DNA from: Minisyncoccota bacterium
GTDB taxonomy: Bacteria; Patescibacteriota; Minisyncoccia; JBAYJV01
Length of the DNA stretch: 64,000 nucleotides
Assembly: GCA_041664925.1 (NCBI GenBank)
Contig: JBAYJV010000001.1
Coordinates: 213,438 to 277,437 of the forward strand
Direction: 5' to 3'
The position numbers were made by a program, and so were the translations under genes. A model generated the notes under the pieces. It was not told the DNA's origin. It made no database searches and worked only from the letters and a program-made list of their open reading frames with translations. Of this stretch, positions 4,975 through 63,297 are shown piece after piece; the first letter of the stretch is position 1; every line of letters starts with the position of its first letter.

Positions 4975-5031
4975 AAAAGTCAATCTATTTAGTAATATTA
5001 TTGACAAGTTTGAAATAATTTGATAGGATGT
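4975..5031. promoter_or_regulatory. back-to-back divergent sigma70-like promoters (minus: TTGACT-17-TAGAAT; plus: TTGACA-17-TAGGAT)
   Basis: hexamers read directly; -35 boxes about 20 bp apart. Confidence 0.6.
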
Positions 5032-5063
5032 TGTCAGTTCTCAAACAAAGCATAAAAGGAGAC

Positions 5064-6014
5064 GCAATGACTTTCAAACAATTAAGCGAAGTGACTGGTC
5101 AAAGAGTTGATCTTTTGACTGTAAGAACAACTAATGCTAGTGTTTTTCAGAATCAATTAGTAGTTCATCTTAATCCAGATCCCGAAGTTTTAACAACTTC
5201 TCGCGAGCGAAGAGAGCACGGTCAAAGTGACAATCACGAATGGCTTAAGTCCCAGATTAAAAAAGTAGAGAGTTCTTCTTCTATAGCAATTATTAATGTA
5301 GCTGACCAAGATCATCCTCTTGAGGTTGTCACGGGAGATGTCTGTGTTGTCCTTGTCGTTGAAGGCAAGCGCTATATTGTGAGCTTGTTGCGAGATATCT
5401 GGCCTGTGGGCTGGCTTAGTCCGGGAGGATGTCCCAGAAGTTTTATAGAACTTTTGAATATTGTGGCTGTGGCTGAAAGAGAAGCTTGTGAAGAACTGAT
5501 CATTGCTGACACTGATATCAATATCTATGTCTTAGATTCTCCTCAAAATGTAGCACGTCACAAAGAAATACTAAGAATTCTTGGACTTTATGAACACAAG
5601 CAGAAATTCCATTTCCTCTGCACAGCACAGGTGCGAGAATTAAGTCCCTATCCTGGACATGCTAATCGTTTAACTATCTACCAAGGCGGAGAACAACTTT
5701 GCGATATCGGCAATCTCAATCTGTCTATTGATCCTGTGACAGCTTCTGTCGCAGCGACGCTTTATTGGGAAATTGAGCTGCCTATTCCTTTGTCTAAACT
5801 TCGCCTGTTTGATGGAGAGCTTCTTCCTGACGGATCACTTCTCGGTCGCCCGGTAAGACTAACCCAAAAAATTGCTCTTGCCGAAGCGCCAAGTAATGAC
5901 AAAGACGAAGTTGCCGCGCTTTTCTATCGCGGAATCAATGTTCTTAATACCAGCTGGCTAAGCCCGACCATGGCTTCCAGAATCGTTGATCCCAAACAAC
6001 CTGTTCTTTCTTAA
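5064..6014 (+). CDS. hypothetical protein, paralog B (start MTFKQLS after SD AAAGGAG; the track start at 5028 lies inside the -10)
   Basis: motif similarity to 3988-4881; promoter and SD positions. Confidence 0.5.
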   Translation, partial: AMTFKQLSEVTGQRVDLLTVRTTNASVFQNQLVVHLNPDPEVLTTSRERREHGQSDNHEWLKSQIKKVESSSSIAIINVADQDHPLEVVTGDVCVVLVVEGKRYIVSLLRDIWPVGWLSPGGCPRSFIELLNIVAVAEREACEELIIADTDINIYVLDSPQNVARHKEILRILGLYEHKQKFHFLCTAQVRELSPYPGHANRLTIYQGGEQLCDIGNLNLSIDPVTASVAATLYWEIELPIPLSKLRLFDGELLPDGSLLGRPVRLTQKIALAEAPSNDKDEVAALFYRGINVLNTSWLSPTMASRIVDPKQPVLS

Positions 6015-6122: not shown

Positions 6123-6347
6123 CTAAGTTGCGGTCGCAATTTCCCTTCTAATCTGATCTCTGATATCGGCGTCTTCACTATCTGTTAAACCAAGGGCAAG
6201 TCTCATTCCATATAATTTTTGCCATGTATCGCTTTCCTCTTTAAGAGTGTACTCTATTTTGTGCTTCTTGCATTCCTCTGGTCTTAATATAGATTTTTTT
6301 ACTTCTCTCTCATAAACTTCCCGCCCTTCTTCGATAGTTTTGTGCAT
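6123..6347 (-). CDS. hypothetical 74-aa protein (start MHKTIEEG, 6 nt after GGAGGGG)
   Basis: preceded by the full leader module; terminator hairpin 6084-6118 on the minus strand. Confidence 0.5.
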   Translation of the reverse strand: MHKTIEEGREVYEREVKKSILRPEECKKHKIEYTLKEESDTWQKLYGMRLALGLTDSEDADIRDQIRREIATAT

Positions 6348-6473
6348 TTTCCCCTCCATTAGAGATTGTTGCTGAACTACAGTGAAGTTAGAAACTCTTA
6401 GGTCCCGGCTTGCCGGGACCACATTTATTTCCAAGAACTATCGACATCCTAACACATTAATAATTTTTGTCAA
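6348..6473 (-). promoter_or_regulatory. promoter (TTGACA-16-TAGGAT) plus conserved 5' leader: AGTTCTT box, GGTCCCGGCAAGCCGGGACC hairpin, TAAGAGTTTCTAAC..., ...AATCTCTAATGGAGG
   Basis: exemplar of a leader family seen at 10 or more loci in this window. Confidence 0.6.
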
Positions 6474-7200: not shown

Positions 7201-8193
7201 TTATCCCAATATCTCCATAATCGTTTTTGCCAATTTATCCGAATCATGACGAATCAAGGTTCGTTTTAATAAATCACTTTTTTCTTGTTTGTGAATTTCT
7301 CTACTTAACAAATTTTTACCTATAAATACCTTGCCATCTTTTTTGAAATTCTTTTCAGATGGAACCTTTACAAGTTCGCCTTCTTTATTATATTTATTAA
7401 GTAATTTTTTGTCAGGCGTTTCTGTATTAAATAAAACAATGTCAATTGTATTTTTTTCTAGATAACTTTCAATGGTTTGAACAAAATCAAATACAGAAGA
7501 ATTGTCAGCCTGACCATGTTTGGTCATTAAATTAATATTATAGAGAATCTTTGCTTTGGTTTGTTTTAGTGCTTTTGTAACACCATCAACTAAAAATAGA
7601 GGAATTAAGCTTGAGTAAAAATTGCCCGGCCCGATGATAATCAAATCTGCTTCTTTGATTGCAAAAAATGCTCTTGGATTTATTTTCGCTTTTGGTTGCA
7701 AAAATATTCTTTTTAGAGGATGTTTCCTTAATAATTTACATTCGGTAATTTCGTGTTCGCCAAAAAGGATCTTGCCATTTTCTAGTTCTGCCAATAATTT
7801 TGCTTTATTTAAAGTTACAGGAATGACTTTGCCTTGCAATGCTAAAATCTGATGGAGTTTTTCAAGCGCTTGATCAAAGCCACCTTCCATTTTTTCCAGC
7901 GCGGAGATCAAAAGATTGCCTAAGTTATGGCCCTTGAGTCCTCCTTTTGTAAAACGGTAACAAAAAAGCTCGCGCATAATTTCAGAAGATTCTGAAAGCG
8001 CTACCAAGCATTGTCTAATATCTCCGGGAGGAAGCACGCCCAATTCATCGCGTAAGATTCCGCTTGAACCGCCATCATCGGTCATAGCAACAATCGCGCT
8101 AAGATTAACTGGGTATTTTTTTAATCCACGCAAAACTGTATAGGTTCCAGTTCCTCCGCCCATAACAACAATTTTTTTTGTTTTAGCTGTCAT
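7201..8193 (-). CDS. YvcK/CofD-like gluconeogenesis factor family protein (UPF0052)
   Basis: KIVVMGGGTG...TDDGGSSGILR signature. Confidence 0.7.
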   Translation of the reverse strand: MTAKTKKIVVMGGGTGTYTVLRGLKKYPVNLSAIVAMTDDGGSSGILRDELGVLPPGDIRQCLVALSESSEIMRELFCYRFTKGGLKGHNLGNLLISALEKMEGGFDQALEKLHQILALQGKVIPVTLNKAKLLAELENGKILFGEHEITECKLLRKHPLKRIFLQPKAKINPRAFFAIKEADLIIIGPGNFYSSLIPLFLVDGVTKALKQTKAKILYNINLMTKHGQADNSSVFDFVQTIESYLEKNTIDIVLFNTETPDKKLLNKYNKEGELVKVPSEKNFKKDGKVFIGKNLLSREIHKQEKSDLLKRTLIRHDSDKLAKTIMEILG

Positions 8194-8265: not shown

Positions 8266-10095
8266 TTATTCTACTGTTACTGATTTTGCCAAATTTCTCG
8301 GCTTATCAATGTCGCAACCACGCAACACCGCTACATAATAAGCAAATAATTGAAGAGGGATAACGCTTAAAATCGGCGTTAACATTTCAAGAGTTTTCGG
8401 AATATAAATAATGTCTTTAGTTATACTTTGTATTTTTTTATCTCCTTCGGTCGCAATCGCTAAAAATGGCCCTTTTCTTGCTTTAATTTCCTCCATAGCT
8501 GAAACTATTTTTTCATAAACACTGTCTTTGGGAGCTAAAAAGAAAGTCGGGAAATTTTCATCAATCAGAGCAATCGGACCGTGTTTCATTTCTCCAGCTG
8601 AATATCCTTCAGCGTGAATATAGGAAATTTCTTTAAGTTTCAATGCTCCTTCTTCTGCGACCGGAAAATTATATTTGCGTCCTAAATAAAAGAAGTCGTT
8701 GTAGTGACAATATTTTTTCGCTAAAGATTTAATAGTATTTTTTTTATCCAATACATTTTCTGCCAGTTCCGAAAGTTTGCCTAACTCATCAATAATTCTT
8801 CTTCCCATTACAAGTGACATATTTCTTTGCCTTCCTAAAAAGACCGTTAAAAGGGCTAGTACAACCAATTGAGATACAAATGCTTTTGTTGAAGCCACAC
8901 CGATTTCCGGACCAGCATGATTATAAATTCCCGCATCAGTTTCTCTGGCAATCGTCGATCCGACAACATTGATAATTCCCAAGGTTAGTACTCCTCTTCT
9001 TTTTGCTTCTCTTATTGCTAATAAAGTATCAATAGTTTCTCCTGATTGAGAAATTGCCAAGATAGCAGTATCTTCGTTCAAGATTGATTTTCGATAACGA
9101 AATTCAGAAGCATTTTCAACTTCGACAGGAATTTCCGCATACTCTTCAATCATGTATTTCCCAACCTTGCCCGCTAAAAGGGCAGTTCCCATGCCCAAAA
9201 TAATAATTCTTTTTATTTTCTTTAATCTGTCTTCCACTAGCTCTAATCCACCAAGTTTAACCATTCCATCTTTTGGAACAATTCTTCCTCTTATCGCATT
9301 CTCAATAACTTCTGGGATCTCATTCATTTCTTTCAACATAAAATGATCATATCCTGATTTCTTAGCCTGTCCAATGTCCCAATCAAGATAATTAGCTGAT
9401 CTTTCTATCTTTTTATTGTCAAGTGTTGAAAGAGAAAAATCTTTATCAGTAATTACTCCTATTTCTCCATCATTTAAATAGATAACTTTTCTGGTGTGAG
9501 CCAAAATTGCCGCTGCATCAGAGGCAATAAAGTTTTCGCCATCGCCCAATCCAACAATTAAAGGACTCGAGTTTCTGGCAAAAACGATTTTTTCAGGATC
9601 TCTTTTCGAAATTACAGCAATTGCATAGGCACCAATAACTTGCCTTAGTGATTTTTTAACCGCTTCTTCGAGAAGATTTTCAAAATTATCTTCGATAAGG
9701 TGAGTTAGAATTTCCGTATCTGTTTCGGTAATAAATTTGTGTCCTTTTTTTTGTAGTTTTTCTTTTATGGTTTTTGCGTTCTCTATAATGCCGTTATGAA
9801 CAAGATAAATTTCTTTTTTGCAATCCCATATGGGATGGGCATTTTTATCTGATGGCTCTCCGTGAGTCGCCCACCTGGTATGAGAAAGACCAGTATTGCC
9901 AGTAATTGTTTTTCCTGAAATTGTTCTTTCTAAATTCTCTATTCTTCCTTTCTTTTTATAACAACCGCCCTTGCCATTTTTACCAATTACAACTATGCCA
10001 GCTGAATCATAGCCACGATATTCAAGTCTTTTAATGCCTTCCATCAATATAGAAAAGGCTTGTTTTTTACCAACATAACCAACTATTCCACACAT
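8266..10095 (-). CDS. glmS: glutamine--fructose-6-phosphate aminotransferase
   Basis: MCGIVGY N-terminal nucleophile, two SIS domains, C-terminal VTVE. Confidence 0.9.
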   Translation of the reverse strand: MCGIVGYVGKKQAFSILMEGIKRLEYRGYDSAGIVVIGKNGKGGCYKKKGRIENLERTISGKTITGNTGLSHTRWATHGEPSDKNAHPIWDCKKEIYLVHNGIIENAKTIKEKLQKKGHKFITETDTEILTHLIEDNFENLLEEAVKKSLRQVIGAYAIAVISKRDPEKIVFARNSSPLIVGLGDGENFIASDAAAILAHTRKVIYLNDGEIGVITDKDFSLSTLDNKKIERSANYLDWDIGQAKKSGYDHFMLKEMNEIPEVIENAIRGRIVPKDGMVKLGGLELVEDRLKKIKRIIILGMGTALLAGKVGKYMIEEYAEIPVEVENASEFRYRKSILNEDTAILAISQSGETIDTLLAIREAKRRGVLTLGIINVVGSTIARETDAGIYNHAGPEIGVASTKAFVSQLVVLALLTVFLGRQRNMSLVMGRRIIDELGKLSELAENVLDKKNTIKSLAKKYCHYNDFFYLGRKYNFPVAEEGALKLKEISYIHAEGYSAGEMKHGPIALIDENFPTFFLAPKDSVYEKIVSAMEEIKARKGPFLAIATEGDKKIQSITKDIIYIPKTLEMLTPILSVIPLQLFAYYVAVLRGCDIDKPRNLAKSVTVE

Positions 10096-10200
10096 GTTAG
10101 AATTTTTTGATGAATAAAATGAATCTTAAAAATTCTTACACCCTTCCGTAGTCCCGGCTTGCCGGGACGAAGGAGGATTACAATAACTAAAAATTGAAAA
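10096..10200 (-). promoter_or_regulatory. degenerate copy of the leader family in front of glmS (CCTTCG-GTCCCGGCAAGCCGGGAC-TACGGAAGG hairpin, GTAAGAATTTTTAAG..., ...AAATTCTAACATG), no GGAGG
   Basis: direct reading of the minus strand. Confidence 0.45.
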
Positions 10201-10294: not shown

Positions 10295-10549
10295 CTACTG
10301 AAGAACTTGTTCTGGCAACACAATATCAATCTCAACTGGGATTCCTAGTTCTCTGAATCTTCTTATGAAACAATCAAGTGCGCTTGGTAAGCCAGACCCC
10401 TCTGAAGAAGCAGAGCATTCTTCAAGCCTGTTTACTACAGCCAAAACATCGTCTTCTCTGTGCCCTTTTTGAGCAAGATGTCTTTCCGCGGCTTCTCTCA
10501 GATGATCAAAGCCACCTTCTGCAATAACTCTCACGCCTTCCCCGTCCAT
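10295..10549 (-). CDS. hypothetical 84-aa protein (higher G+C)
   Basis: SD ...CTCTAAGAGAGGAGGG-5-ATG; terminator hairpin GGTCCGTTAAAAGTTAACGGGCC + T run at 10262-10292. Confidence 0.5.
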   Translation of the reverse strand: MDGEGVRVIAEGGFDHLREAAERHLAQKGHREDDVLAVVNRLEECSASSEGSGLPSALDCFIRRFRELGIPVEIDIVLPEQVLQ

Positions 10550-10660
10550 TTTTCCCTCCTCTCTTAGAGTTTTTTCTTGAGCTCTGCGAAAGTTAAAAAT
10601 TCTTAGATCCTGAGCGTAGTCGAAGGACTACATTAATTCAATTCAAGAACTTACATTCTC
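10550..10660 (-). promoter_or_regulatory. leader-family variant (AAGTTCTTG..., GTAGTCCTTCGACTAC hairpin, GCTCAGGATCTAAGAATTTTTAAC..., CTCTAAGAGAGGAGG)
   Basis: direct reading. Confidence 0.5.
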
Positions 10661-10852
10661 TCAAAGAACTTAGTATGAGCTATTCATACTTCGTATGATA
10701 CTATCATACAATTAGATCTTTTCTTCGTCAATATTGGGTTATCCACAGGGTACCGTATGGTACCCCGCAAGCAGAGTAAATAAAAAAAGAATCTTCCGAT
10801 TCCTGCAATATTTATTCTAAATTCTAGCTTTTAAATTCTATATTCTCACAAA

Positions 10853-13024: not shown

Positions 13025-13094
13025 AATATTGACAAATAATAAACCTTGTTTTAGGATTGGGACAGTTCTTAAAAAATCTAACAAAGGAGAAAAG
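13025..13094 (+). promoter_or_regulatory. promoter TTGACA-17-TAGGAT and minimal leader (AGTTCTTAAAAAATCTAACAAAGGAG)
   Basis: direct reading. Confidence 0.5.
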
Positions 13095-13589
13095 ATGAAT
13101 GAAAGAAGAAAGACAAAGAAAGAGATTCGAGCAGAGTACGAAAGAAAATGGACTCTGGTAATGGCTCGATGGCTTGGCAGATTTGTCAGGAAGCCCAAAA
13201 ATAATGGTGATATCTTCGTGGGAATTTTCGGCGGCGAAATCGAAATATTTAAAAGACCTGTATATATGACAGATCTCCAAATATCAAAATTGTCGCCACT
13301 GGCTCAGGTAAAAGAAGAAACTAGAATACGGATGAAAAAATTTCCACCATCAGGAAAAAGATGGAACCCATTTAATGATTTCACTCCATGGATGGGTCCA
13401 AAAGGATTGCTTAAGAAAATTAGGACAACAGGTCTTTTGAATGTCTTTCTGGCAAAACTTGATCTTAGCAACCAACTTAATGGTATCGAAGAACTCTTTG
13501 GTTGGTTGGAAAATGATCCAAGTGTATTGGCAAAACTTATGGCCGAAGCGCTTGTCGAGATTCTCGAAGAAAAAAGTTTAAAGCCATAA
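13095..13589 (+). CDS. hypothetical 164-aa basic protein (start MNERRKT; the longer track ORF begins upstream of the promoter)
   Basis: promoter and SD positions. Confidence 0.5.
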   Translation: MNERRKTKKEIRAEYERKWTLVMARWLGRFVRKPKNNGDIFVGIFGGEIEIFKRPVYMTDLQISKLSPLAQVKEETRIRMKKFPPSGKRWNPFNDFTPWMGPKGLLKKIRTTGLLNVFLAKLDLSNQLNGIEELFGWLENDPSVLAKLMAEALVEILEEKSLKP

Positions 13590-17070: not shown

Positions 17071-17457
17071 TTAGGGTCTTTGAATGAATACTTCGCCGCT
17101 AATACTTTCGCCAGCTCGTTTAACCCATGAAAGAGGAATACCGTGAATGATTGTGCTATCTGTTGGTCTTTGACATGTCGTTGCCTTGGCTTCTCTTCCT
17201 GCGACCAATTCAGCAATCTGGCTAGATAGCATCCAAAGATCCATCAATGGATTTGCATCATCACTCTTCTGTAAAAGCACTTCGTCACCATGACCTTCCA
17301 CTGCGCCAATTACACAACTAGGTGAAATGTCTCTAAGACATAAGCCACTGCTTCGTTCTGTGGTATAAGCAACAACCTTTTCTCTTTTATTAAACCTAAC
17401 TAAATCATCTGGTCTGATAAAATAAAAAGTTCCGCATTTTCCCGATTGATTTTCCAT
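17071..17457 (-). CDS. hypothetical 128-aa protein (G+C-rich cassette gene)
   Basis: SD GAGGAGGAAAG-ATG; terminator hairpin at 17005-17040. Confidence 0.5.
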   Translation of the reverse strand: MENQSGKCGTFYFIRPDDLVRFNKREKVVAYTTERSSGLCLRDISPSCVIGAVEGHGDEVLLQKSDDANPLMDLWMLSSQIAELVAGREAKATTCQRPTDSTIIHGIPLSWVKRAGESISGEVFIQRP

Positions 17458-17536
17458 CTTTCCTCCTCGACTTTTCCTATTTGCTGAGCTTTTGAAGAAC
17501 TGTCAATATCTTAAATCAAAATTTATTGTGTGTCAA
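17458..17536 (-). promoter_or_regulatory. promoter TTGACA-17-TAAGAT with short leader (AGTTCTTCAAAAGCTCAGC...GTCGAGGAGG)
   Basis: about 90% identical over ~90 nt to 18085-18164. Confidence 0.6.
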
Positions 17537-18084: not shown

Positions 18085-18164
18085 CTTTCCTCCTCGACTT
18101 TTCCTATGCGCTGAGCTTTTGAAGAACTATCAATATCCTAAGTTATAATTATTCAAATGTCAAG
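18085..18164 (-). promoter_or_regulatory. promoter TTGACA-17-TAGGAT with short leader, duplicate of 17458-17536
   Basis: direct reading. Confidence 0.6.
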
Positions 18165-31667: not shown

Positions 31668-31847
31668 AGATATACAAAGTAAAATTTCGTGGACTGGGAG
31701 GGACTTGTCCCAGAAACTTCTATCCCGATAATTCGGGATTAGAATTTCGGGATCCCGTCATTGTAATTCCGGTAAACCGGAATAACAAGTGACTGGGAAA
31801 CCCTCTACCTCCCCGGCATGCCGGGGTGTTCTACCATCCTTAATATA
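31668..31847 (-). promoter_or_regulatory. GC-rich multi-hairpin element between tRNA-Ala and the downstream gene (CCCCGGCATGCCGGGG, TTCCGGTTTACCGGAA, CCCGAATTATCGGG, CTGGGAcaagtcccTCCCAG; contains AGAAGTTTCTGGGAC)
   Basis: hairpins belong to the same families used in the leader modules. Confidence 0.4.
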
Positions 31848-33252: not shown

Positions 33253-33741
33253 TCAATTACTGCTCTCTAGTTTTCCTTTTACAGAAGTTAAATTACTAAC
33301 ATGAGTAGGACTTTTCTTAATCAAACATCTTCGTGCTTGTACCGTCTGAACAGTTCTTCCAAGATATTTAGCAAGCTCACGATCTTTTGCTCCTGTAGCA
33401 ATTATTACTTTCTTAGAATCGATGATTATTTTAAACAAAATCATGATTTCTTCAAGAGTACTATACGCTTCTCCGCTGTTATAATTGTGTTCTGCGCCAA
33501 TTATATAATTCCTTTTCTTTCCCTCATTTCTTTTGTGTGGATTTCTACTTCTCCATCTTTTGTGATTCTTATAATGACGACCAGGATGATCGGCGCGCCA
33601 TTGCTTGTTATATTCTCGATCACGTTTTCTTGCTTTTTCAAGATTCTCTGTCCGCCACCAATGATCATAACATCTTCTGCACATGCCTCGTGCATAGACC
33701 TTTCTTCCGCATCCCTCCGTCTTGCACTTTTTCTCGGACAT
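33253..33741 (-). CDS. hypothetical basic protein with N-terminal Cys4 zinc finger and C-terminal HTH-like segment (ATG start; the track start is a GTG upstream)
   Basis: CKTEGCGRKVYARGMCRRCY; ELAKYLGRTVQTVQARR. Confidence 0.5.
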   Translation of the reverse strand: MSEKKCKTEGCGRKVYARGMCRRCYDHWWRTENLEKARKRDREYNKQWRADHPGRHYKNHKRWRSRNPHKRNEGKKRNYIIGAEHNYNSGEAYSTLEEIMILFKIIIDSKKVIIATGAKDRELAKYLGRTVQTVQARRCLIKKSPTHVSNLTSVKGKLESSN

Positions 33742-33925
33742 TTTCACCCTCCTTTAGAGATTCTTAGCAAAGTCATGAGCTTAGAAACTCTTAAGTCCCG
33801 TACCGTGCTTGCTCTGGTACGGGACAGTTATTATCAGCACACCTCTTCGTGTACTTGGCGAAGGACTACCTCACCTTTCCTCCCAAGAACTTCTCTTATT
33901 CTATAATATATTTATTTTTTGTCAA
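33742..33925 (-). promoter_or_regulatory. promoter TTGACA-16-TAGAAT with full leader module (AGTTCTTGG, GTCCCGTACCAGAGCAAGCACGGTACGGGAC hairpin, TAAGAGTTTCTAAGCTCA..., GCTAAGAATCTCTAAAGGAGG)
   Basis: direct reading; the -35 overlaps the 3' end of udg. Confidence 0.6.
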
Positions 33926-40874: not shown

Positions 40875-40878
40875 ATAG

Positions 40879-40932
40879 CAAACCCCGGCAAGCCGGGGTT
40901 TTTCTTGACAATGCTAAAAACAATGATAGAAT
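40879..40932 (+). promoter_or_regulatory. fused terminator-promoter module: AAACCCCGGCAAGCCGGGGTTTTT then TTGACA-16-TAGAAT
   Basis: direct reading; sister copy at 41571-41627. Confidence 0.65.
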
Positions 40933-41570: not shown

Positions 41571-41627
41571 AAGCCCCGGCAAGATGTCGGGGTTTTTTTT
41601 GACAATACACAACTAAAGATATAAGAT
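41571..41627 (+). promoter_or_regulatory. fused terminator-promoter module: CCCCGGCAAGATGTCGGGGTTTTTTT then TTGACA-17-TAAGAT
   Basis: direct reading. Confidence 0.65.
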
Positions 41628-41657
41628 ATTTATAGTTCCATATAGCCAAGGAGGAAA

Positions 41658-49369: not shown

Positions 49370-49397
49370 TTGACAACATTTTTGTTTATCCTATAAT
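49370..49397 (+). promoter_or_regulatory. promoter TTGACA-16-TATAAT driving the ncRNA
   Basis: consensus hexamers. Confidence 0.65.
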
Positions 49398-49404
49398 TGT
49401 TTTT

Positions 49405-49640
49405 ACTGGGGGCGGGCGTCGCAGATGGTTCGGTTGTTGGTGTAACTTGTGGTTACAGACGCATAGTTGCAGACGCAGACTCGGATCTTGTGAGAGTAGG
49501 TAAGTAGCTTTCAAGTCTCCATCAATAGACGGCGTTCTCGGGCTGCGCGCCTCCCCCTTCTTCATTCTAAAAGTTCTTTGAATCAAATTTCGTTCATAAG
49601 CGATACTCCCGAGAGAAGCATAGGCTTCTCTCTTTTTTTG
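49405..49640 (+). ncRNA. candidate structured small RNA (~150-nt core 49408-49557 closed by 5' GGGGGCGGGCGTCGCAG / 3' CTGCGCGCCTCCCCC; possibly 6S-like)
   Basis: own consensus promoter; long closing helix; no ORF; terminator 49607-49640. Confidence 0.45.
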
Positions 49641-52288: not shown

Positions 52289-52681
52289 TTAATCTATGAG
52301 AAGCCTATTGCTTGCTTTTAGAGCAGGCACCCTACAAAGCATAGCAATTTCCTCTGGAGTCTTATAACACAAAGTTAAAAGAACTAAAAAGAAAAGCAAG
52401 GAATTGGGAACAAATACTCCTTGAAGAGGATATTCAATCAAATGAGCATCTTCTTCGTGAAGATCTTTCTCGTTAACCCATGTCCATTTCTTTGTACCAC
52501 CATGAAATAGCGACCACCCAAGACCAAGCGGTCCCCTAAGAAGTCCTCCTTGAATCCCTCTTCCTTCAGGACATTCAAAGATTAAGAGAAAAAGAGGATT
52601 CACTCTTTCTTGGTCTGATTTTAGATATACCTTGACACATCTTGCGGGTTTTAGATCTATTCTCTCAGCCTCGTCTGTCAT
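52289..52681 (-). CDS. hypothetical 130-aa protein with C-terminal TM
   Basis: second gene of a leader-driven two-gene unit. Confidence 0.45.
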   Translation of the reverse strand: MTDEAERIDLKPARCVKVYLKSDQERVNPLFLLIFECPEGRGIQGGLLRGPLGLGWSLFHGGTKKWTWVNEKDLHEEDAHLIEYPLQGVFVPNSLLFFLVLLTLCYKTPEEIAMLCRVPALKASNRLLID

Positions 52682-52701
52682 TCAACCTCCTTTTAATAAT
52701 T

Positions 52702-52989
52702 CTAAAGATTAATCTCTGTCTTGCGACGCATCATCGTCCAGGAAATACTACACACAACATTGCCAATAAGTAGCAGAAAGACGAGATAGCCCGCCTTAGC
52801 ACCACAAACAAGTTTTTTTCGACAAATTATGATTGTCGCCACAGAAATAATACCCACCGAAAGAAGCGTTAGTGTGAGGGTTGTGTTTGATACGCTAAAA
52901 AATGATCCAATTAAAGTCGTTATACTGACATAAGTCAAAAGACAGCCCAAAACCACCCACCAATCGTATGACCTAATCCACTTTTTCAT
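52702..52989 (-). CDS. hypothetical 95-aa membrane protein
   Basis: CTCTAACGGAGGGAAAG-ATG. Confidence 0.5.
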   Translation of the reverse strand: MKKWIRSYDWWVVLGCLLTYVSITTLIGSFFSVSNTTLTLTLLSVGIISVATIIICRKKLVCGAKAGYLVFLLLIGNVVCSISWTMMRRKTEINL

Positions 52990-53146
52990 CTTTCCCTCCG
53001 TTAGAGATTCTTAACGAACTTGTGAGTTTAGAAACTCTTACGTCCCGGCTTGCCCTGCCTACCGGCAGGCAGGCGGGACAACCTTAGTTATTTTTAAAGA
53101 ACTTGCCAGTTTTAAAATCTTATCATTTTACTATTTTATAGTCAAG
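52990..53146 (-). promoter_or_regulatory. promoter TTGACT-17-TAAGAT with full leader module (AAGTTCTTT, GTCCCGCCTGCCTGCCGGTAGGCAGGGCAAGCCGGGAC hairpin, GTAAGAGTTTCTAAACTCAC, GTTAAGAATCTCTAACGGAGG)
   Basis: direct reading. Confidence 0.6.
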
Positions 53147-53193
53147 GATTATATATAAAAACAGGGAGACGAACTACTCGTCTCCCTTTTTCT

Positions 53194-54195
53194 CTAGTAA
53201 AGATACTTTGGATCGATTTCTTGTCCTAAATGGATTGCTCGGACAACATCTGCTAGCATTTGCGCAATTGAAATGATTTTCGTATTTGGTAATCGTTTTG
53301 TTGCGGGAATTGGCAAGCTATTGGTAAAAATAAATTCAACGCTAATTCCTCTTGATCTTGCTAATCCTACGATATGGAAAAGTTTTTTATTAGCAAGTCC
53401 GCAAAGAACACCATGGGCAGAAATATAGATAAATCTTTTAAGGATTGGGTAATTTTCAATAAGATCAATTGCGATGTCTTCAAAAGTTCCACCTTCACTG
53501 ATCTCATCGTCAATACCAATGACGATTTCTTTAACTTCTCCATCAATTCCAAGAAATTTTGATTTACCATCACCCGATCTGCTTTTTTTGCCATGAATTA
53601 CTGGCAACCTCATTTCTTTGGCGAAAGTTGCTAACCGCTCTTCCCGTCCTCCGTCTGGAGTTAAAAGAGTAACATTGTCAGCCCCAATCAATCCTTCTAA
53701 CTCCTCAACGATCCGATATTTTGCCCCCAAGTGAATTACTGGTACGCCAAAATATTCTTTGACATCAAGATTATGAAGCATAATAATAACAACTTGGTCA
53801 GCGCCAGCAAGTTTTATCTCTTCGGCATAAAGCTTGGCTCCAATGGGAACACCTTTTGGTTTTTCCCGATGCGATCTGCCGTAAGAGAAATAGCCAATAA
53901 CTGCAATAACCTTTCTGGCTCCATTTTCTTTAGCAGCACGCATCAATTTCTTAAACTCAGCAAACTCTTCCTCAATCCCTCTAGTCGGTGCAAAAGTATG
54001 AAACACGAAGACAGTGCAACCATCTACATTAGAACCTTCTTCTTCTATGAGTAACTGAGGTAGCGTGTTTTCGTTTGGAAACTTAAGTATCTGATGGCGA
54101 GCGTGATCAATGCCAAGAATTTTAGCAACTTCTTCCATTAAATCTGGATGAGCACTGGTGCTTAACAGCCGAACTTTTTCTAATCCCGTTGCCAT
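53194..54195 (-). CDS. ribose-phosphate pyrophosphokinase (PRPP synthetase)-family protein, divergent
   Basis: MLHNLDVKEYFGVPV, PDGGREERLATFA and IVIGIDDEISEGGTF correspond to Prs flag/PRPP-binding motifs. Confidence 0.55.
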   Translation of the reverse strand: MATGLEKVRLLSTSAHPDLMEEVAKILGIDHARHQILKFPNENTLPQLLIEEEGSNVDGCTVFVFHTFAPTRGIEEEFAEFKKLMRAAKENGARKVIAVIGYFSYGRSHREKPKGVPIGAKLYAEEIKLAGADQVVIIMLHNLDVKEYFGVPVIHLGAKYRIVEELEGLIGADNVTLLTPDGGREERLATFAKEMRLPVIHGKKSRSGDGKSKFLGIDGEVKEIVIGIDDEISEGGTFEDIAIDLIENYPILKRFIYISAHGVLCGLANKKLFHIVGLARSRGISVEFIFTNSLPIPATKRLPNTKIISIAQMLADVVRAIHLGQEIDPKYLY

Positions 54196-54359
54196 AACAC
54201 ACCTCCGTTAGAGATTCTTAGCGAACTTTTGTGAGCCTAGAAGCTCTTACGTCCTGCCGTAGCTCCGGTTTACCGGAGCGAAGGAGGACCGCCTTTATTC
54301 TATTGTGAATGAACTTTTCCCCTTATTCTTCTTTTATCAAAGTTTTAAACGAATGTCAA
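54196..54359 (-). promoter_or_regulatory. promoter (TTGACA, weak -10) with full leader module (GGTCCTCCTTCGCTCCGGTAAACCGGAGCTACGGCAGGAC hairpin, GTAAGAGCTTCTAGGCTCAC, GCTAAGAATCTCTAACGGAGG)
   Basis: direct reading; perfect palindrome GTGTTACCaGGTAACAC at 54383-54399 just upstream. Confidence 0.55.
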
Positions 54360-54514
54360 AGAAATCGTATGTTATATTATGTAGTGTTACCAGGTAACAC
54401 TAAATAAACCCCGCACCAATTTGGTACGGGGTTCTTAATTTTGTTTCTTTTCGCTTTACTCAAAGACAAAATTAGAAAAAAGCGCCGAGTCTGACTCAGC
54501 GCCATGATTTAGAA

Positions 54515-54838
54515 CTAAGCATGCGGAAGTTGTTCTTCCCACAATTGCTTATCTTCTCCCAATAACCGATTTTTAATCGGCTTAAGTTGAATGGCAAGTT
54601 CTTCTTCACTTAATGTTCTTGGATCAACTCCTAATTGATTTGTTAATTCTTTGCGAAAACGCCTCATAACTACTTCGATTAACTTACTCTTAGGAACCTG
54701 ACATGCTTCTGAAAGCACCTCGAGAAAATCACAGACATCGGCTGTAATATTAAATTTCTATTCAATTGTTCGCTTCGAGGTACCCACGGTACAGTACCCA
54801 ATCCTTCACGAACTTTAACATCTTCTCTTTTCATCTTT
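54515..54838 (-). pseudogene. small gene apparently split by a frameshift: 51-aa ORF from ATG 54838 (leader + SD) overlaps a GTG-started 67-aa ORF (54718-54515) in another frame
   Basis: direct translation of both frames; terminator at 54478-54510. Confidence 0.35.
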
Positions 54839-54956
54839 CCTCCTATTAGATTCTCTTTGTGAGTTTACGAACATCAGAAAATCTTACATCCTGAGTTTAT
54901 CGAAGGATTATTTTTAAGAACTATTAATATCTTACTATTATTTCAATTTATGTCAA
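54839..54956 (-). promoter_or_regulatory. promoter TTGACA-16-TAAGAT with leader (AGTTCTTAAAAATAATCCTTCGATAAACTCAGGAT, GTAAGATTTTCTGA..., ACTCACAAAGAGAATCTAATAGGAGG)
   Basis: closely related to the leader at 62294-62532. Confidence 0.6.
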
Positions 54957-55010
54957 GGGTTAATGTTGTTATTAATCAAAAAGGAGACACTTTCTCTGTG
55001 TCCCCTCGTT

Positions 55011-55217
55011 TTATACAGAAATACTTTTTTTCAAAGAACGATTTTTGAAATAGGCATAGATTTTCCCTCGCCGCCTTGTATACCTCTCTGGACTCCACGT
55101 CCAAACATCATGAATGGGAATTCCTGCGATAAGAAACGAGATGCAAGGTCCAATTACAGCAAATACCGCTGCGCCAAATACGCACATTATCGCAAATTCA
55201 ACAAAACTCAATTCCAT
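55011..55217 (-). CDS. small membrane protein (68 aa)
   Basis: SD AAGGGAGG 6 nt before ATG; preferred over the overlapping + strand ORF. Confidence 0.45.
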   Translation of the reverse strand: MELSFVEFAIMCVFGAAVFAVIGPCISFLIAGIPIHDVWTWSPERYTRRRGKIYAYFKNRSLKKSISV

Positions 55218-62293: not shown

Positions 62294-62532
62294 GTTTGAC
62301 AACAGGTATTAATTATGATAAATAGATACTAGTCCTATAAATCAGTTCTTTTAAAAATCCTTCGACTTCGCTCAGGACAAGCTCCTTCGACTTCGCTCAG
62401 GACAAGCTCCTTCGACTTCGCTCAGGACAAGCTCCTTCGACCCTTCAATTAAATTCAGGGCAGGCTTCGCTCAGGATGTAATTTTTTCTAAACCTCACAT
62501 CCGTTCGGCAAGAAAAACTAACAGGAGGAAAT
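62294..62532 (+). promoter_or_regulatory. promoter TTGACA-17-TAAATA and long leader of the same family, expanded by a tandem triplication
   Basis: AGTTCTTTTAAAAATCCTTCGACTTCGCTCAGGAC..., GTAATTTTTTCTAAACCTCAC, AAGAAAAACTAACAGGAGG. Confidence 0.55.
62359..62440 (+). repeat. 25-nt unit CCTTCGACTTCGCTCAGGACAAGCT x3 plus a partial 4th copy inside the leader
   Basis: perfect tandem copies. Confidence 0.9.
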
Positions 62533-62895
62533 ATGGCAAATCGGAAAATAGAAATCACGAAAAGCATAAAAAATTTTCTAGGATCAGTCCTAGTAACTTT
62601 TAAGATGATGGAGTTAATTATGTTTTATTGCCTTTTCTACATAGATTGTCCTATTTATGTGGATCATGAGAATGCTACTGTTTATGCAAAGACTGAAAAA
62701 ATGACAAAGAAAAAAAGAATCAGACGATCTGTGTGGGCATACATTATGTCTACGTTCCTATTTCTTATAGCGCTTGCTATTATGTCAACTCCTAGTGAAC
62801 TCTTTGTTGTCGGATGTATTTTAGGAATCATGTCTATCGGTTTAAATTCTATAGCATACTTCGACTTGACTAAGGTCACATCTATAAAAGCGTAG
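62533..62895 (+). CDS. hypothetical membrane protein (120 aa)
   Basis: SD CAGGAGG. Confidence 0.5.
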   Translation: MANRKIEITKSIKNFLGSVLVTFKMMELIMFYCLFYIDCPIYVDHENATVYAKTEKMTKKKRIRRSVWAYIMSTFLFLIALAIMSTPSELFVVGCILGIMSIGLNSIAYFDLTKVTSIKA

Positions 62896-63262: not shown

Positions 63263-63297
63263 AAAAACCCCGGAAAGCCGGGGTCTTTTTTTTATTC
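63263..63297. terminator. bidirectional terminator AAAACCCCGGAAAGCCGGGGTCTTTTTTTT (CCCCGG family)
   Basis: between convergent genes. Confidence 0.75.

Follow-up and report, generated by a model that had tools for sequence, protein, structure and literature searches.

The pneumococcal BOX elements (modules A, repeated B, and C) and the Correia elements of Neisseria are short modular intergenic repeats that are co-transcribed and affect downstream expression, and the mycobacterial interspersed repetitive units (MIRUs) are orientation-specific intercistronic repeats of operons, the tandem copy number of which is variable. Stabilizing structures at the 5′ end of Gram-positive and E. coli mRNAs are represented by the ermC, aprE, and ompA leaders and by cryIIIA STAB-SD. 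To our knowledge, control of mRNAs by Nus factors has so far been known for suhB, lambda N, and CRISPR arrays, and the tiny genomes of the Candidate Phyla Radiation (CPR, Patescibacteria) feature few recognizable regulators, their expression control being almost undescribed; no described CPR leader family was found in the literature. The present study deals with a family of gene leaders detected in a 64,000-nt stretch of a Minisyncoccota genome (contig JBAYJV010000001.1, positions 213,438 to 277,437; referred to as the window), which matches no curated RNA family. Its nearest known counterparts are the boxA/nut leaders for the 5′ part and the modular co-transcribed repeats BOX, Correia, and MIRU for the remainder. 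With about even chances, in our estimation, the family may represent a lineage-specific, modular, cis-acting, and recombining RNA expression cassette residing in the 5′ untranslated region (UTR) or intercistronic part of many mRNAs.

Eight leaders of the window, four of them full and four variants, have a common order of parts, given here in the sense of the downstream gene. Full leaders start with a promoter (TTGACA, 16–17 nt, TAnnAT), followed by AGTTCTT(N)AAAA (the 5′ box) at approximately +1 and by one or two GC-rich hairpins starting with GTCC and finishing with GGAC or GGAT. One base further, box 1 (TAAGAG(C/T)TTCTAA), a loop (NN-TCAC-..-GTTC-NN), and box 2 (TAAGAATCTCTAA) form the AU-rich helix termed P2, and the leader is completed by N-GGAGG(TG) as the Shine–Dalgarno sequence (SD), 4–8 nt, and ATG. 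In leader-type copies, the SD lies 1–4 nt past ..TCTAA and the start codon 5–10 nt further, the distance from the end of P2 to the SD (GGAGG, often GGAGGUG) being 3 nt. All leader-type copies are co-directional with the next gene; the strand in the window is minus for all elements except 13025–13094 and 62294–62532 (plus strand), to which two short leaders on the plus strand, missed by the earlier note on this sequence, are to be added (5001–5066 and 41599–41650). Short leaders, four to six in number (at 17458, 18085, 13029 (+), 5001 (+), and 41599 (+)), consist of promoter, 5′ box, and SD alone, with neither hairpin nor P2.

The arrangement of −10 element, 6 nt, and AGTTC occurs nine times in the window compared to 0.82 expected, a number reached in none of 100 shuffles. 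Many promoters of the clade carry the 5′ box alone, approximately 25 of them having exactly 6 nt between the −10 element and AGTTC, and the consensus over 48 clade promoters reads A-GTTCTT-N-(A/G)AAA. The earlier note had given 6 nt for the full-length leader, but in the leaders at 52990, 54196, 10550, and 62294 the 5′ box follows 13–32 nt past the −10 element (at least five leaders overall). The hairpins represent a small repertoire with nested forms and recurring words (CCTTCG, CTACGG, CTCAGGA, and CCCGGCAAGCCGGG), most of them being preceded by GTAG, GTTG, or GTGG. Leaders with hairpins have one to four units of a hairpin plus a 13-nt box, and the hairpin interior is far less conserved than P2 and the hairpin base. 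As an observation in its own right, the CCCGGCAAGCCGGG-type hairpin is reused in true terminators of the window (40878–40901, 41573–41592, and 63266–63286). The downstream genes are unrelated, as proposed previously: 8 out of 10 in the window have no Pfam family, the other two encoding Prs and GlmS, and those of relatives also include genes for a sigma factor, an aminotransferase, an acyltransferase, and membrane proteins.

A covariance model of the box 1–loop–box 2 part (R1) was scored at every position of the window with filters off. Strong matches at 54208–54249, 53001–53040, 6359–6400, and 33754–33793 (53–63 bits; E-values between 3e-15 and 2e-12) placed the four full copies where the earlier note had located them. 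Variants were matched at 10564–10605 (27.1 bits) and 10097–10138 (26.3 bits) and, weakly, at 62486–62514 (15.9 bits) and 54846–54886 (11.8 bits), while a 25.4-bit match at 53084–53122 falls inside the promoter/5′-box region of the 52990 leader and is no separate member. The previously listed short forms at 17458, 18085, and 13025 have the promoter, 5′ box, and SD in common with the full leaders, but nothing else, and the multi-hairpin form listed at 31668–31847 featured none of the boxes and no R1 match, and is not a member.

RNAalifold recovered P2 from a plain MAFFT alignment of 21 copies, with ten pairs and two conserved mismatches (C/U opposite U, and A opposite A). For the MAFFT alignment A2, 97% of the cells were paired and the covariation score was 0.237, compared to 0.072 in shuffles (reached by none of 500) and to at most 0.038 when the partners were slid. 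In the model-fitted alignment of 30 distinct copies, 96% of the cells were paired and 5 out of 10 pairs changed on both sides (score 0.336 vs. 0.104). The stem drawn between the two boxes in the earlier note is, thus, real and supported by covariation on a larger alignment (0.24–0.34 compared to 0.07–0.10 in shuffles), and the compensatory change it had reported (TAAGC/GCTAA vs. TAAAC/GTTAA), together with the G-U pair in TAGGC/GCTAA, extends to the 30 distinct copies. Pairs at the tip of P2 range over GC, CG, AU, and UA, C10–G34 turning into G-C or U-A, and variants of the outer stem still pair: AGAG/CUCU, AGAA/UUCU (glmS), AGAU/AUCU (four copies), and ACG/CGU in locus L102 of a relative with 70% GlmS identity. 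These substitutions demonstrate box 1–box 2 pairing at the level of compared copies, with the caveat that 7 out of 10 pairs are invariant among the canonical ones. In total, 19 of the 44 P2 columns are invariant, both mismatches and the loop words also being conserved. G-C, A-U, and G-U occur at the position closing the hairpin (at least six distinct cases), but A-C never does, which, together with the invariable co-orientation with genes, indicates that the sense strand is the relevant one. Hairpin folding energies are equal on both strands and carry no strand information; strand assignment from wobble pairs was uninformative for P2 as well, only the closing pair being of use.

To determine the distribution of the family, R1 was applied at a cut-off of E ≤ 1 to 1.33 Mb of sequence, comprising the window, 15 loci from JGI metagenomes (L004–L018), syntenic loci of relatives with GlmS 88%, 72%, 70%, and 68% identical (L099–L103), and about 60 Bacillota and CPR loci, the other Bacillota and CPR loci accounting for approximately 1.1 Mb. 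In total, 42 matches (30 distinct) were obtained, all but one of them in the species of the window, L004–L018, and L099/L100; the lone match outside the clade, in a Clostridia locus (L039), was chance-like. A broader model (R2) added nothing convincing in the relatives at 68–72% GlmS identity or in the other CPR and Bacillota loci. The metagenome loci were those recovered with a pattern of box 1, box 2, and SD, for which no match was found across 185,579 species genomes; the LeuRS of the window shares no more than 55% identity with any one of these species representatives. Its GlmS is identical to a protein assigned in NCBI to a Candidatus Paceibacterota MAG, which is present on contigs of 350–433 kb from three sources. 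Within the window and its 20-kb flanks (L104 and L105), 11 modules were counted in 84 kb. As far as these searches extend, they show a leader family confined to a narrow clade of Paceibacterota. The Rfam scan of the whole window at gathering score yielded four tRNAs only and no leader match; nothing relevant was found in L005, L008, and L009 at E ≤ 0.1, and only the tmRNA and tRNAs in L104 and L105.

The earlier note had missed that the leaders are composed of two parts, a boxA-like 5′ element and a module of hairpin plus P2. Following an invariant core (GUUCUU), the 5′ box continues with (N)(A/G)AAA and fits the boxA core, position 7 being variable. Regarding other bacteria, the mycoplasma sequence GTTCTTTGAAAACT is the spacer boxA of that group. 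It is a conserved primer site in the mycoplasma 16S–23S spacer (PMC3019172). The boxA consensus GYTCTTTAANA, in which C4 and T6 are critical, is gamma-proteobacterial (PMC5725501), and NusB–NusE recognize just the first 8 nt of boxA (PMC3177189). Perfect matches to this consensus were found at 53092–53102, in L004 (GTTCTTTAACA), at L099:7331, and at L099:9059. In the phage record, lambda nutL has the sequence CGCTCTTAAAAATTAA-GCCCTGAAGAAGGGC, with the boxB hairpin after CGCTCTTAAAAATTAA. The leader at 54922 has AGTTCTTAAAAATAAT-CCTTCG..AGG, with its own hairpin after AGTTCTTAAAAATAAT, and shares 13 out of 14 positions with nutL over boxA and spacer. Likewise, the order of boxA-like box, A-rich spacer (4–30 nt), and GC hairpin is present in the family, the hairpin loops not being conserved. 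The position of the 5′ box, 6–32 nt past the −10 element, places it within the predicted transcript, and it is paired with box 1 in some leader predictions. A NusB gene (PF01029) is located at the window edge. By its sequence, the 5′ box is boxA-like and a putative NusB–S10 site.

Compared to the lambda nutL (upstream of gene N), E. coli suhB, and rrn (boxB-boxA-boxC) leaders, the family has a GYUCUU core, an A-rich stretch, and a GC hairpin likewise located in the transcribed leader just past the promoter. Unlike in known boxA systems, however, the element resides at +1 or +2 and precedes the genes of about half of the strong promoters, whereas gamma-proteobacterial genomes have between 0 and 7 boxA mRNA sites each, and the hairpins are without the conserved N-type loop of lambda nut. 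In suhB and lambda N, a boxA located 6 to approximately 200 nt 5′ of the SD controls translation over intervening structured RNA, by way of an RNA loop that stays attached to the polymerase (PMC5725501).

The 5′ box and the module of hairpin plus P2 are separable, since modules vary between orthologues, sit between cistrons, and precede the tmRNA. A module with neither promoter nor 5′ box lies 12 nt past the stop of the 74-aa gene in L017 (2095–2195), directly 5′ of the next SD. Approximately 7–8 kb past the window end, a GC hairpin and a P2-like helix (CAAGATTTTGTA..ACAAAATCTAG) are located between smpB and the first base of the tmRNA (L104:2915–3000, minus strand). The L099 orthologue of the short leader at 13029 (minus strand, leader ending at 7237) carries a 62-nt insert of hairpin and P2. 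For the 84-aa gene, the leader is long in the window (10550) and in L008 but short in L099, L101, L102, and L103, where the 5′ box GTTCTTTG(A/G) alone is kept, down to relatives with 68% GlmS identity, so that its module was gained. Between the window (6348) and L017, the leader of the 74-aa gene differs in its hairpin but hardly in promoter and P2, and L006, L007, L012, and L018 have units repeated two or three times in tandem. Insertions and deletions fall between the conserved 5′ box and ..ATCTAA-SD, and two comparisons of filled and empty sites (window 13029 with L099; L099:9059 with L008 and window 10550) revealed neither inverted ends nor target duplications, for which reason exchange via shared leader flanks fits better than transposition. 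Hence, of the transposable or recombining cassette suggested earlier, the recombining part is borne out by presence and absence, hairpin swaps, and copy number, while no sign of transposition was obtained from the two pairs. The compared copies reveal rapid reshuffling of modules.

Regarding the same flank, a further module of hairpin and P2 was observed upstream of ArgRS (L104:3890–4125, plus strand), where it precedes, with an SD, a 16-codon open reading frame (MKKRLGVLVCAETAVE); a terminator-like hairpin is next, just 5′ of the ArgRS start. Leader repeats of another kind are present in L102 (17620–17785 and 8130–8295), one leader having five or six copies of AAGAACCTT and the glmS leader having tandem ATATAAGCAAAGCTTGG-hairpin units. 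The fact that this relative features leader repeats of its own suggests that repeat-built leaders are a wider habit of the group.

The proposed cassette would act on the nascent or mature RNA of whichever gene comes next. Its boxA-like 5′ end, A-GUUCUU-N-(A/G)AAA, would be single-stranded and usually form the very start of the transcript from a consensus sigma-70 promoter, and in the form of the RNA AGUUCUUUAAAA it would load Nus factors (NusB–S10) onto RNA polymerase. The loaded factors would tether the RNA 5′ end and thereby influence elongation or SD accessibility, similar to E. coli suhB and the lambda N leader. Together, the GC hairpin and P2 would provide a fixed structural block just 5′ of the ribosome-binding site (RBS), shielding the cistron start from decay and from upstream sequence, and it is proposed that the use of modules between cistrons and before the tmRNA reflects this protection and insulation. 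Since P2 is predicted to be thermodynamically weak yet is strongly conserved in sequence, a protein is probably needed to hold it. Copies would be homogenized, exchanged, and gained through recombination between leaders with common conserved flanks. Similar to the known 5′ stabilizers, the block combines a stable structure with a strong SD near the 5′ end of unrelated coding sequences, and stabilization is a plausible mode for it; however, those stabilizers are single-gene features and not a repeated family, and the first hairpin of the family lies 12–40 nt from +1, unless the uncompensated pairing of 5′ box and box 1 forms. Taken together, we infer cis action on expression from these features.

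If this cassette is real, one reusable leader would equip unrelated, mostly orphan genes with a promoter-proximal site resembling boxA, with a structured block, and with a strong RBS of standard form. This would be a compact means of expressing many genes, perhaps under common regulation, and a natural counterpart to the insulated RBS cassettes of synthetic biology. If the 5′ box binds NusB–S10, mRNA control by Nus factors would no longer concern just a handful of genes per genome but a large part of one. In a farther-reaching version, which seems improbable to us, transcripts from about half of the strong promoters of this reduced genome would open with a functional boxA, NusB–S10 would be loaded on mRNAs genome-wide and not on rRNA alone, and the modules would be nut-like extensions setting, for each gene, how the polymerase-tethered RNA loop exposes or hides the RBS; a general, protein-coupled layer of transcription and translation control would then be built from a recombining RNA cassette.

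Several results weigh against the cassette reading. Start site, RNA structure, and expression effect are all deduced from sequence. The genes served are mostly short and apparently monocistronic, so that antitermination as such would have little to do. In the nearest-neighbor model, the ensemble probability of P2 is below 0.2 in 8 out of 11 full leaders and at most 0.4 in 10 out of 11, UCUCU being a frequent predicted pairing partner of the SD. Wobble pairs of P2 do not favor the sense strand (3 G-U compared to 6 A-C cells). The boxA match is short, AT-rich, and of low complexity, and the window as a whole shows no enrichment of the consensus when one mismatch is allowed (30 occurrences vs. 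28 expected). The fixed distance of 6 nt from the −10 element in about 25 promoters is unlike known boxA sites and could reflect an initiator acting at the DNA level, and no 16S sequence from which the rRNA leader of the organism could be read was present in the window and 103 loci. Furthermore, narrow distribution and fast turnover are equally expected of a selfish repeat.

Such an interspersed repeat, selfish or neutral and comparable to BOX, REP/REPIN, Correia, or PATE elements, tolerated in 5′ UTRs and multiplied by transposition or gene conversion, represents the most serious competing explanation, although we regard it as unlikely. The pairing would in this case serve mobility by means of single-stranded DNA hairpins. 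Presence or absence of modules between genomes with 88–90% identical GlmS, hairpin swaps, and variable tandem number fit this explanation, as do the lack of detectable members outside the clade and genome-specific box variants (three full copies of the window have T at box position 7, whereas the fourth has C, as do most copies of L004–L018). REP sequences are headed by a GTAG-type motif, and the GTAG, GTTG, or GTGG ahead of most hairpins resembles such a head; moreover, the hairpins fold equally well on either strand. However, leader-type copies are uniform in orientation and in their 3-nt spacing to the SD, and no copy was located 3′ of a gene or in the space separating convergent genes. The filled and empty pairs lack terminal inverted repeats and target duplications, P2 and the hairpin base are much more conserved than the hairpin interior, and the closing pair avoids A-C. 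Copies never occur in inverted pairs, and no transposase was found among the called genes of locus L001 and of L099–L105, a search covering the annotated neighbors. A miniature or Correia-type element is not supported by the two filled/empty comparisons. Like BOX and Correia, the family features a variable number of internal modules, terminal modules that are complementary and fold, and genome-specific spread, but there is no sequence relation; unlike these repeats, it is oriented strictly gene-wise, is fused to the SD at fixed spacing by its 3′ end, and has neither inverted-repeat ends nor a TA duplication. It resembles MIRUs in orientation specificity, intercistronic occurrence, and variation of tandem number, whereas MIRUs hold short overlapping reading frames without a hairpin-plus-SD design, and most copies of the family follow a promoter. 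If the family is a selfish repeat after all, it would be the first described BOX-like modular element in the phylum and a recombination marker for uncultivated lineages.

The strong conservation of P2 could alternatively originate from a platform for one sequence-specific trans factor, an RNA-binding protein or small RNA controlling a Csr-like post-transcriptional regulon, with the boxes, P2, and the loop (..UCAC..GUUC..) serving as a recognition site beside the SD. This is an improbable explanation in our view, even though the invariant P2 columns exceed what pairing needs, the two mismatches and loop words are conserved, and P2 is too weak to fold alone. An RNA of approximately 145 nt in relatives (described below), having the same kind of hairpin and lying off gene starts, could serve as a decoy. 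However, no candidate factor was identified, the decoy-like RNA is absent from the window and its 20-kb flanks, and the conservation may reflect a recent common origin of the copies.

Action at the DNA level, with AGTTCTT at +1 as an initiator or promoter-escape element and the boxes as operators for a global transcription factor, is very improbable. The exact 6-nt position of the 5′ box in about 25 clade promoters would be explained, and TAAGARYYTCTAA recurs in direct orientation in both boxes. On the other hand, at least five leaders have the 5′ box 13–32 nt past the −10 element, promoter-less modules exist, the compensatory changes affect the tip of P2 outside the boxes, and the conserved asymmetric mismatches are unexpected in a palindromic operator. 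A ligand- or temperature-sensing riboswitch or attenuator, for which the 5′ UTR location and possible alternative pairings (5′ box/box 1; UCUCU/SD) could be invoked, deserves hardly any credence, since, in agreement with the earlier note, the genes are unrelated, no Rfam match was obtained, the aptamer-sized part is the variable and freely exchangeable hairpin part, no terminator follows the hairpins, the SD is outside P2, and the 5′ box changes AGTTCAT, AGTTATT, and AGTTCTA are uncompensated in box 1.

More specific candidates were considered and rejected. Concerning intrinsic terminators or attenuators, a scan of 52600–55100 flagged true terminators upstream of promoters but no leader hairpins. 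A thermometer masking the SD is unsupported because P2 excludes the SD, stopping 3 nt short of it, and the mini-helix UCUCU/GGAGG is not kept in L102 (ACG/CGU). A 5′-terminal helix P1, pairing AGUUCUU with AAGAGCU of box 1, was predicted in 2 out of 11 leaders and is an alternative pairing at most, as the 5′ box variants just named lack compensation and some modules have no 5′ box; a few internal units appear to be compensated for it (AAGCUC/GAGCUU in L012 and AAACUC/GAGUUU in L018). For a relay in which a factor on the 5′ box leads to full P2 and a free SD, forcing the 5′ box to be single-stranded raised the predicted SD accessibility clearly in only 2 out of 11 leaders. A pseudoknot between UCAC of the P2 loop and GUGA past the SD was associated weakly, as counted by eye (approximately 10 out of 17 compared to 1 out of 8 leaders). 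An upstream open reading frame was dismissed as well: ATG is found 5′ of some hairpins, but without an SD and often as ATG-TAG.

All four full leaders of the window lie on the minus strand. The leader at 6348–6473 precedes a 74-aa orphan gene (R1: 60 bits, E 2.4e-14) and comprises the −35 (6473–6468) and −10 (6451–6446) elements, the 5′ box AGTTCTTGGAAA (6439–6428), the GC hairpin (6420–6401), P2 with box 1, loop, and box 2 (6400–6359), the SD (6357–6353), and ATG at 6347. At 33742–33925, upstream of a 162-aa orphan gene (53 bits), the −35 (33925–33920) and −10 (33903–33898) elements and the 5′ box (33891–33885) are followed by two hairpins (approximately 33869–33835, and 33825–33795), P2 (33793–33754), the SD (33752–33748), and ATG at 33741; this is the sole leader for which ViennaRNA predicted a P2 probability of about 0.8. 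The leader at 52990–53146 belongs to a 95-aa membrane orphan gene (60.5 bits), with the −35 element at 53145–53140, the −10 element at 53122–53117, the 5′ box AGTTCTTTAAAA at 53103–53092 (including the perfect GYTCTTTAANA match), a composite hairpin at 53079–53042, P2 at 53040–53001, the SD at 52999–52995, and ATG at 52989. The highest score (63 bits) was achieved for the leader at 54196–54359, preceding the prs-like gene (333 aa; Pfam Pribosyltran_N). It features a −35 element (54359–54354), the 5′ box variant AGTTCATTCACA (54315–54304), a nested hairpin (54289–54251), P2 (54249–54208), the SD (54206–54202), and ATG at 54195.

Among the variants, the glmS leader (10096–10190, minus strand; 26.3 bits, E 8e-5) has a 5′ box-like AGTTATT (10188–10182), a nested hairpin (10178–10140), and a P2 variant with the outer stem AGAA/UUCU (10138–10097), the ATG at 10095 abutting ..TCTAAC. 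In two genomes, glmS is without an SD and its ATG lies 1–4 nt past P2 (window 10093–10140, minus strand; L099:9958–10003); a glmS ribozyme was not found upstream of the window gene in the Rfam scan. The leader of the 84-aa orphan gene (10550–10731, minus strand; 27.1 bits, E 5e-5) consists of the −35 (10731–10726) and −10 (10708–10703) elements, two 5′ boxes (10670–10659 and 10651–10640), a hairpin (10628–10607), a P2 variant (10605–10564), the SD (10559–10555), and ATG at 10549. Overlapping its promoter, at 10690–10760 (minus strand), a sequence similar to a DnaA box (CTGTGGATAAC) was noticed together with a palindrome (GTATGATAGTATCATAC..AGTATGA), which are kept in all relatives down to 68% GlmS identity (approximately L099:9000, L101:9330, L102:7630, and L103:9560) and probably represent a gene-specific operator.

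The variant at 54835–54956 (minus strand; weak R1 match of 11.8 bits), upstream of a 51-aa open reading frame, contains the −35 (54956–54951) and −10 (54934–54929) elements, the 5′ box AGTTCTTAAAAA (54922–54911), a hairpin (54908–54888), a P2 variant (54886–54846; AGAUUUUCU/AGAGAAUCU), the SD (54843–54839), and ATG at 54834. On the plus strand, the leader at 62296–62532 (partial R1 match of 15.9 bits) serves a 120-aa membrane protein gene and comprises the −35 element (62296–62301), the 5′ box AGTTCTTTTAAAA (62344–62356), 3–4 tandem hairpin units of 25 nt (TCCTTCGACTTCGCTCAGGACAAGC; 62358–62477), a P2 variant (62479–62521), the SD (62524–62528), and ATG at 62533.

The short leader at 17458–17536 (minus strand) is built from promoter, 6 nt, AGTTCTTCAAAA (17501–17490), SD, and ATG at 17457, without hairpin or P2, and an almost identical one is located at 18085–18163 (minus strand; 5′ box 18128–18117) and conserved at L099:2787. 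On the plus strand, 13029–13094 reads TTGACA, 17 nt, TAGGAT, 6 nt, and AGTTCTTAAAAA (13064–13075), followed by ATCTAAC, AAAGGAG, and ATG at 13095. With the same promoter and spacing (TTGACA, 17 nt, TAGGAT, 6 nt), the leader at 5001–5066 (plus strand) continues with AGTTCTCAAAC (from 5036), AAAAGGAGA, and ATG; the fifth is the one at 41599–41650 (plus strand).

The approximately 145-nt RNA of relatives mentioned above is a three-hairpin element, without an Rfam match, that was found at L008:10990–11180 (plus), L009:9985–10180 (plus), L009:7050–7245 (minus), and L005:210–400 (minus). It is located between genes for surface proteins (PKD, LTD) away from gene starts; 10 of its 38 predicted pairs change on both sides, in four copies only, and its third hairpin is P2-like (TAAATTCTAAnn..nnTAAGAATTTTA). 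Finally, the window contains a perfect promoter (TTGACA-16-TATAAT) at 49370–49640 (plus strand), followed by a GC-rich non-coding stretch of approximately 170–250 nt without an Rfam match at E ≤ 1 and by a terminator-like hairpin. The ends of this stretch are able to pair (GGGGGCGGGCG..CGCGCCTCCCCC), and the region represents a candidate small RNA.

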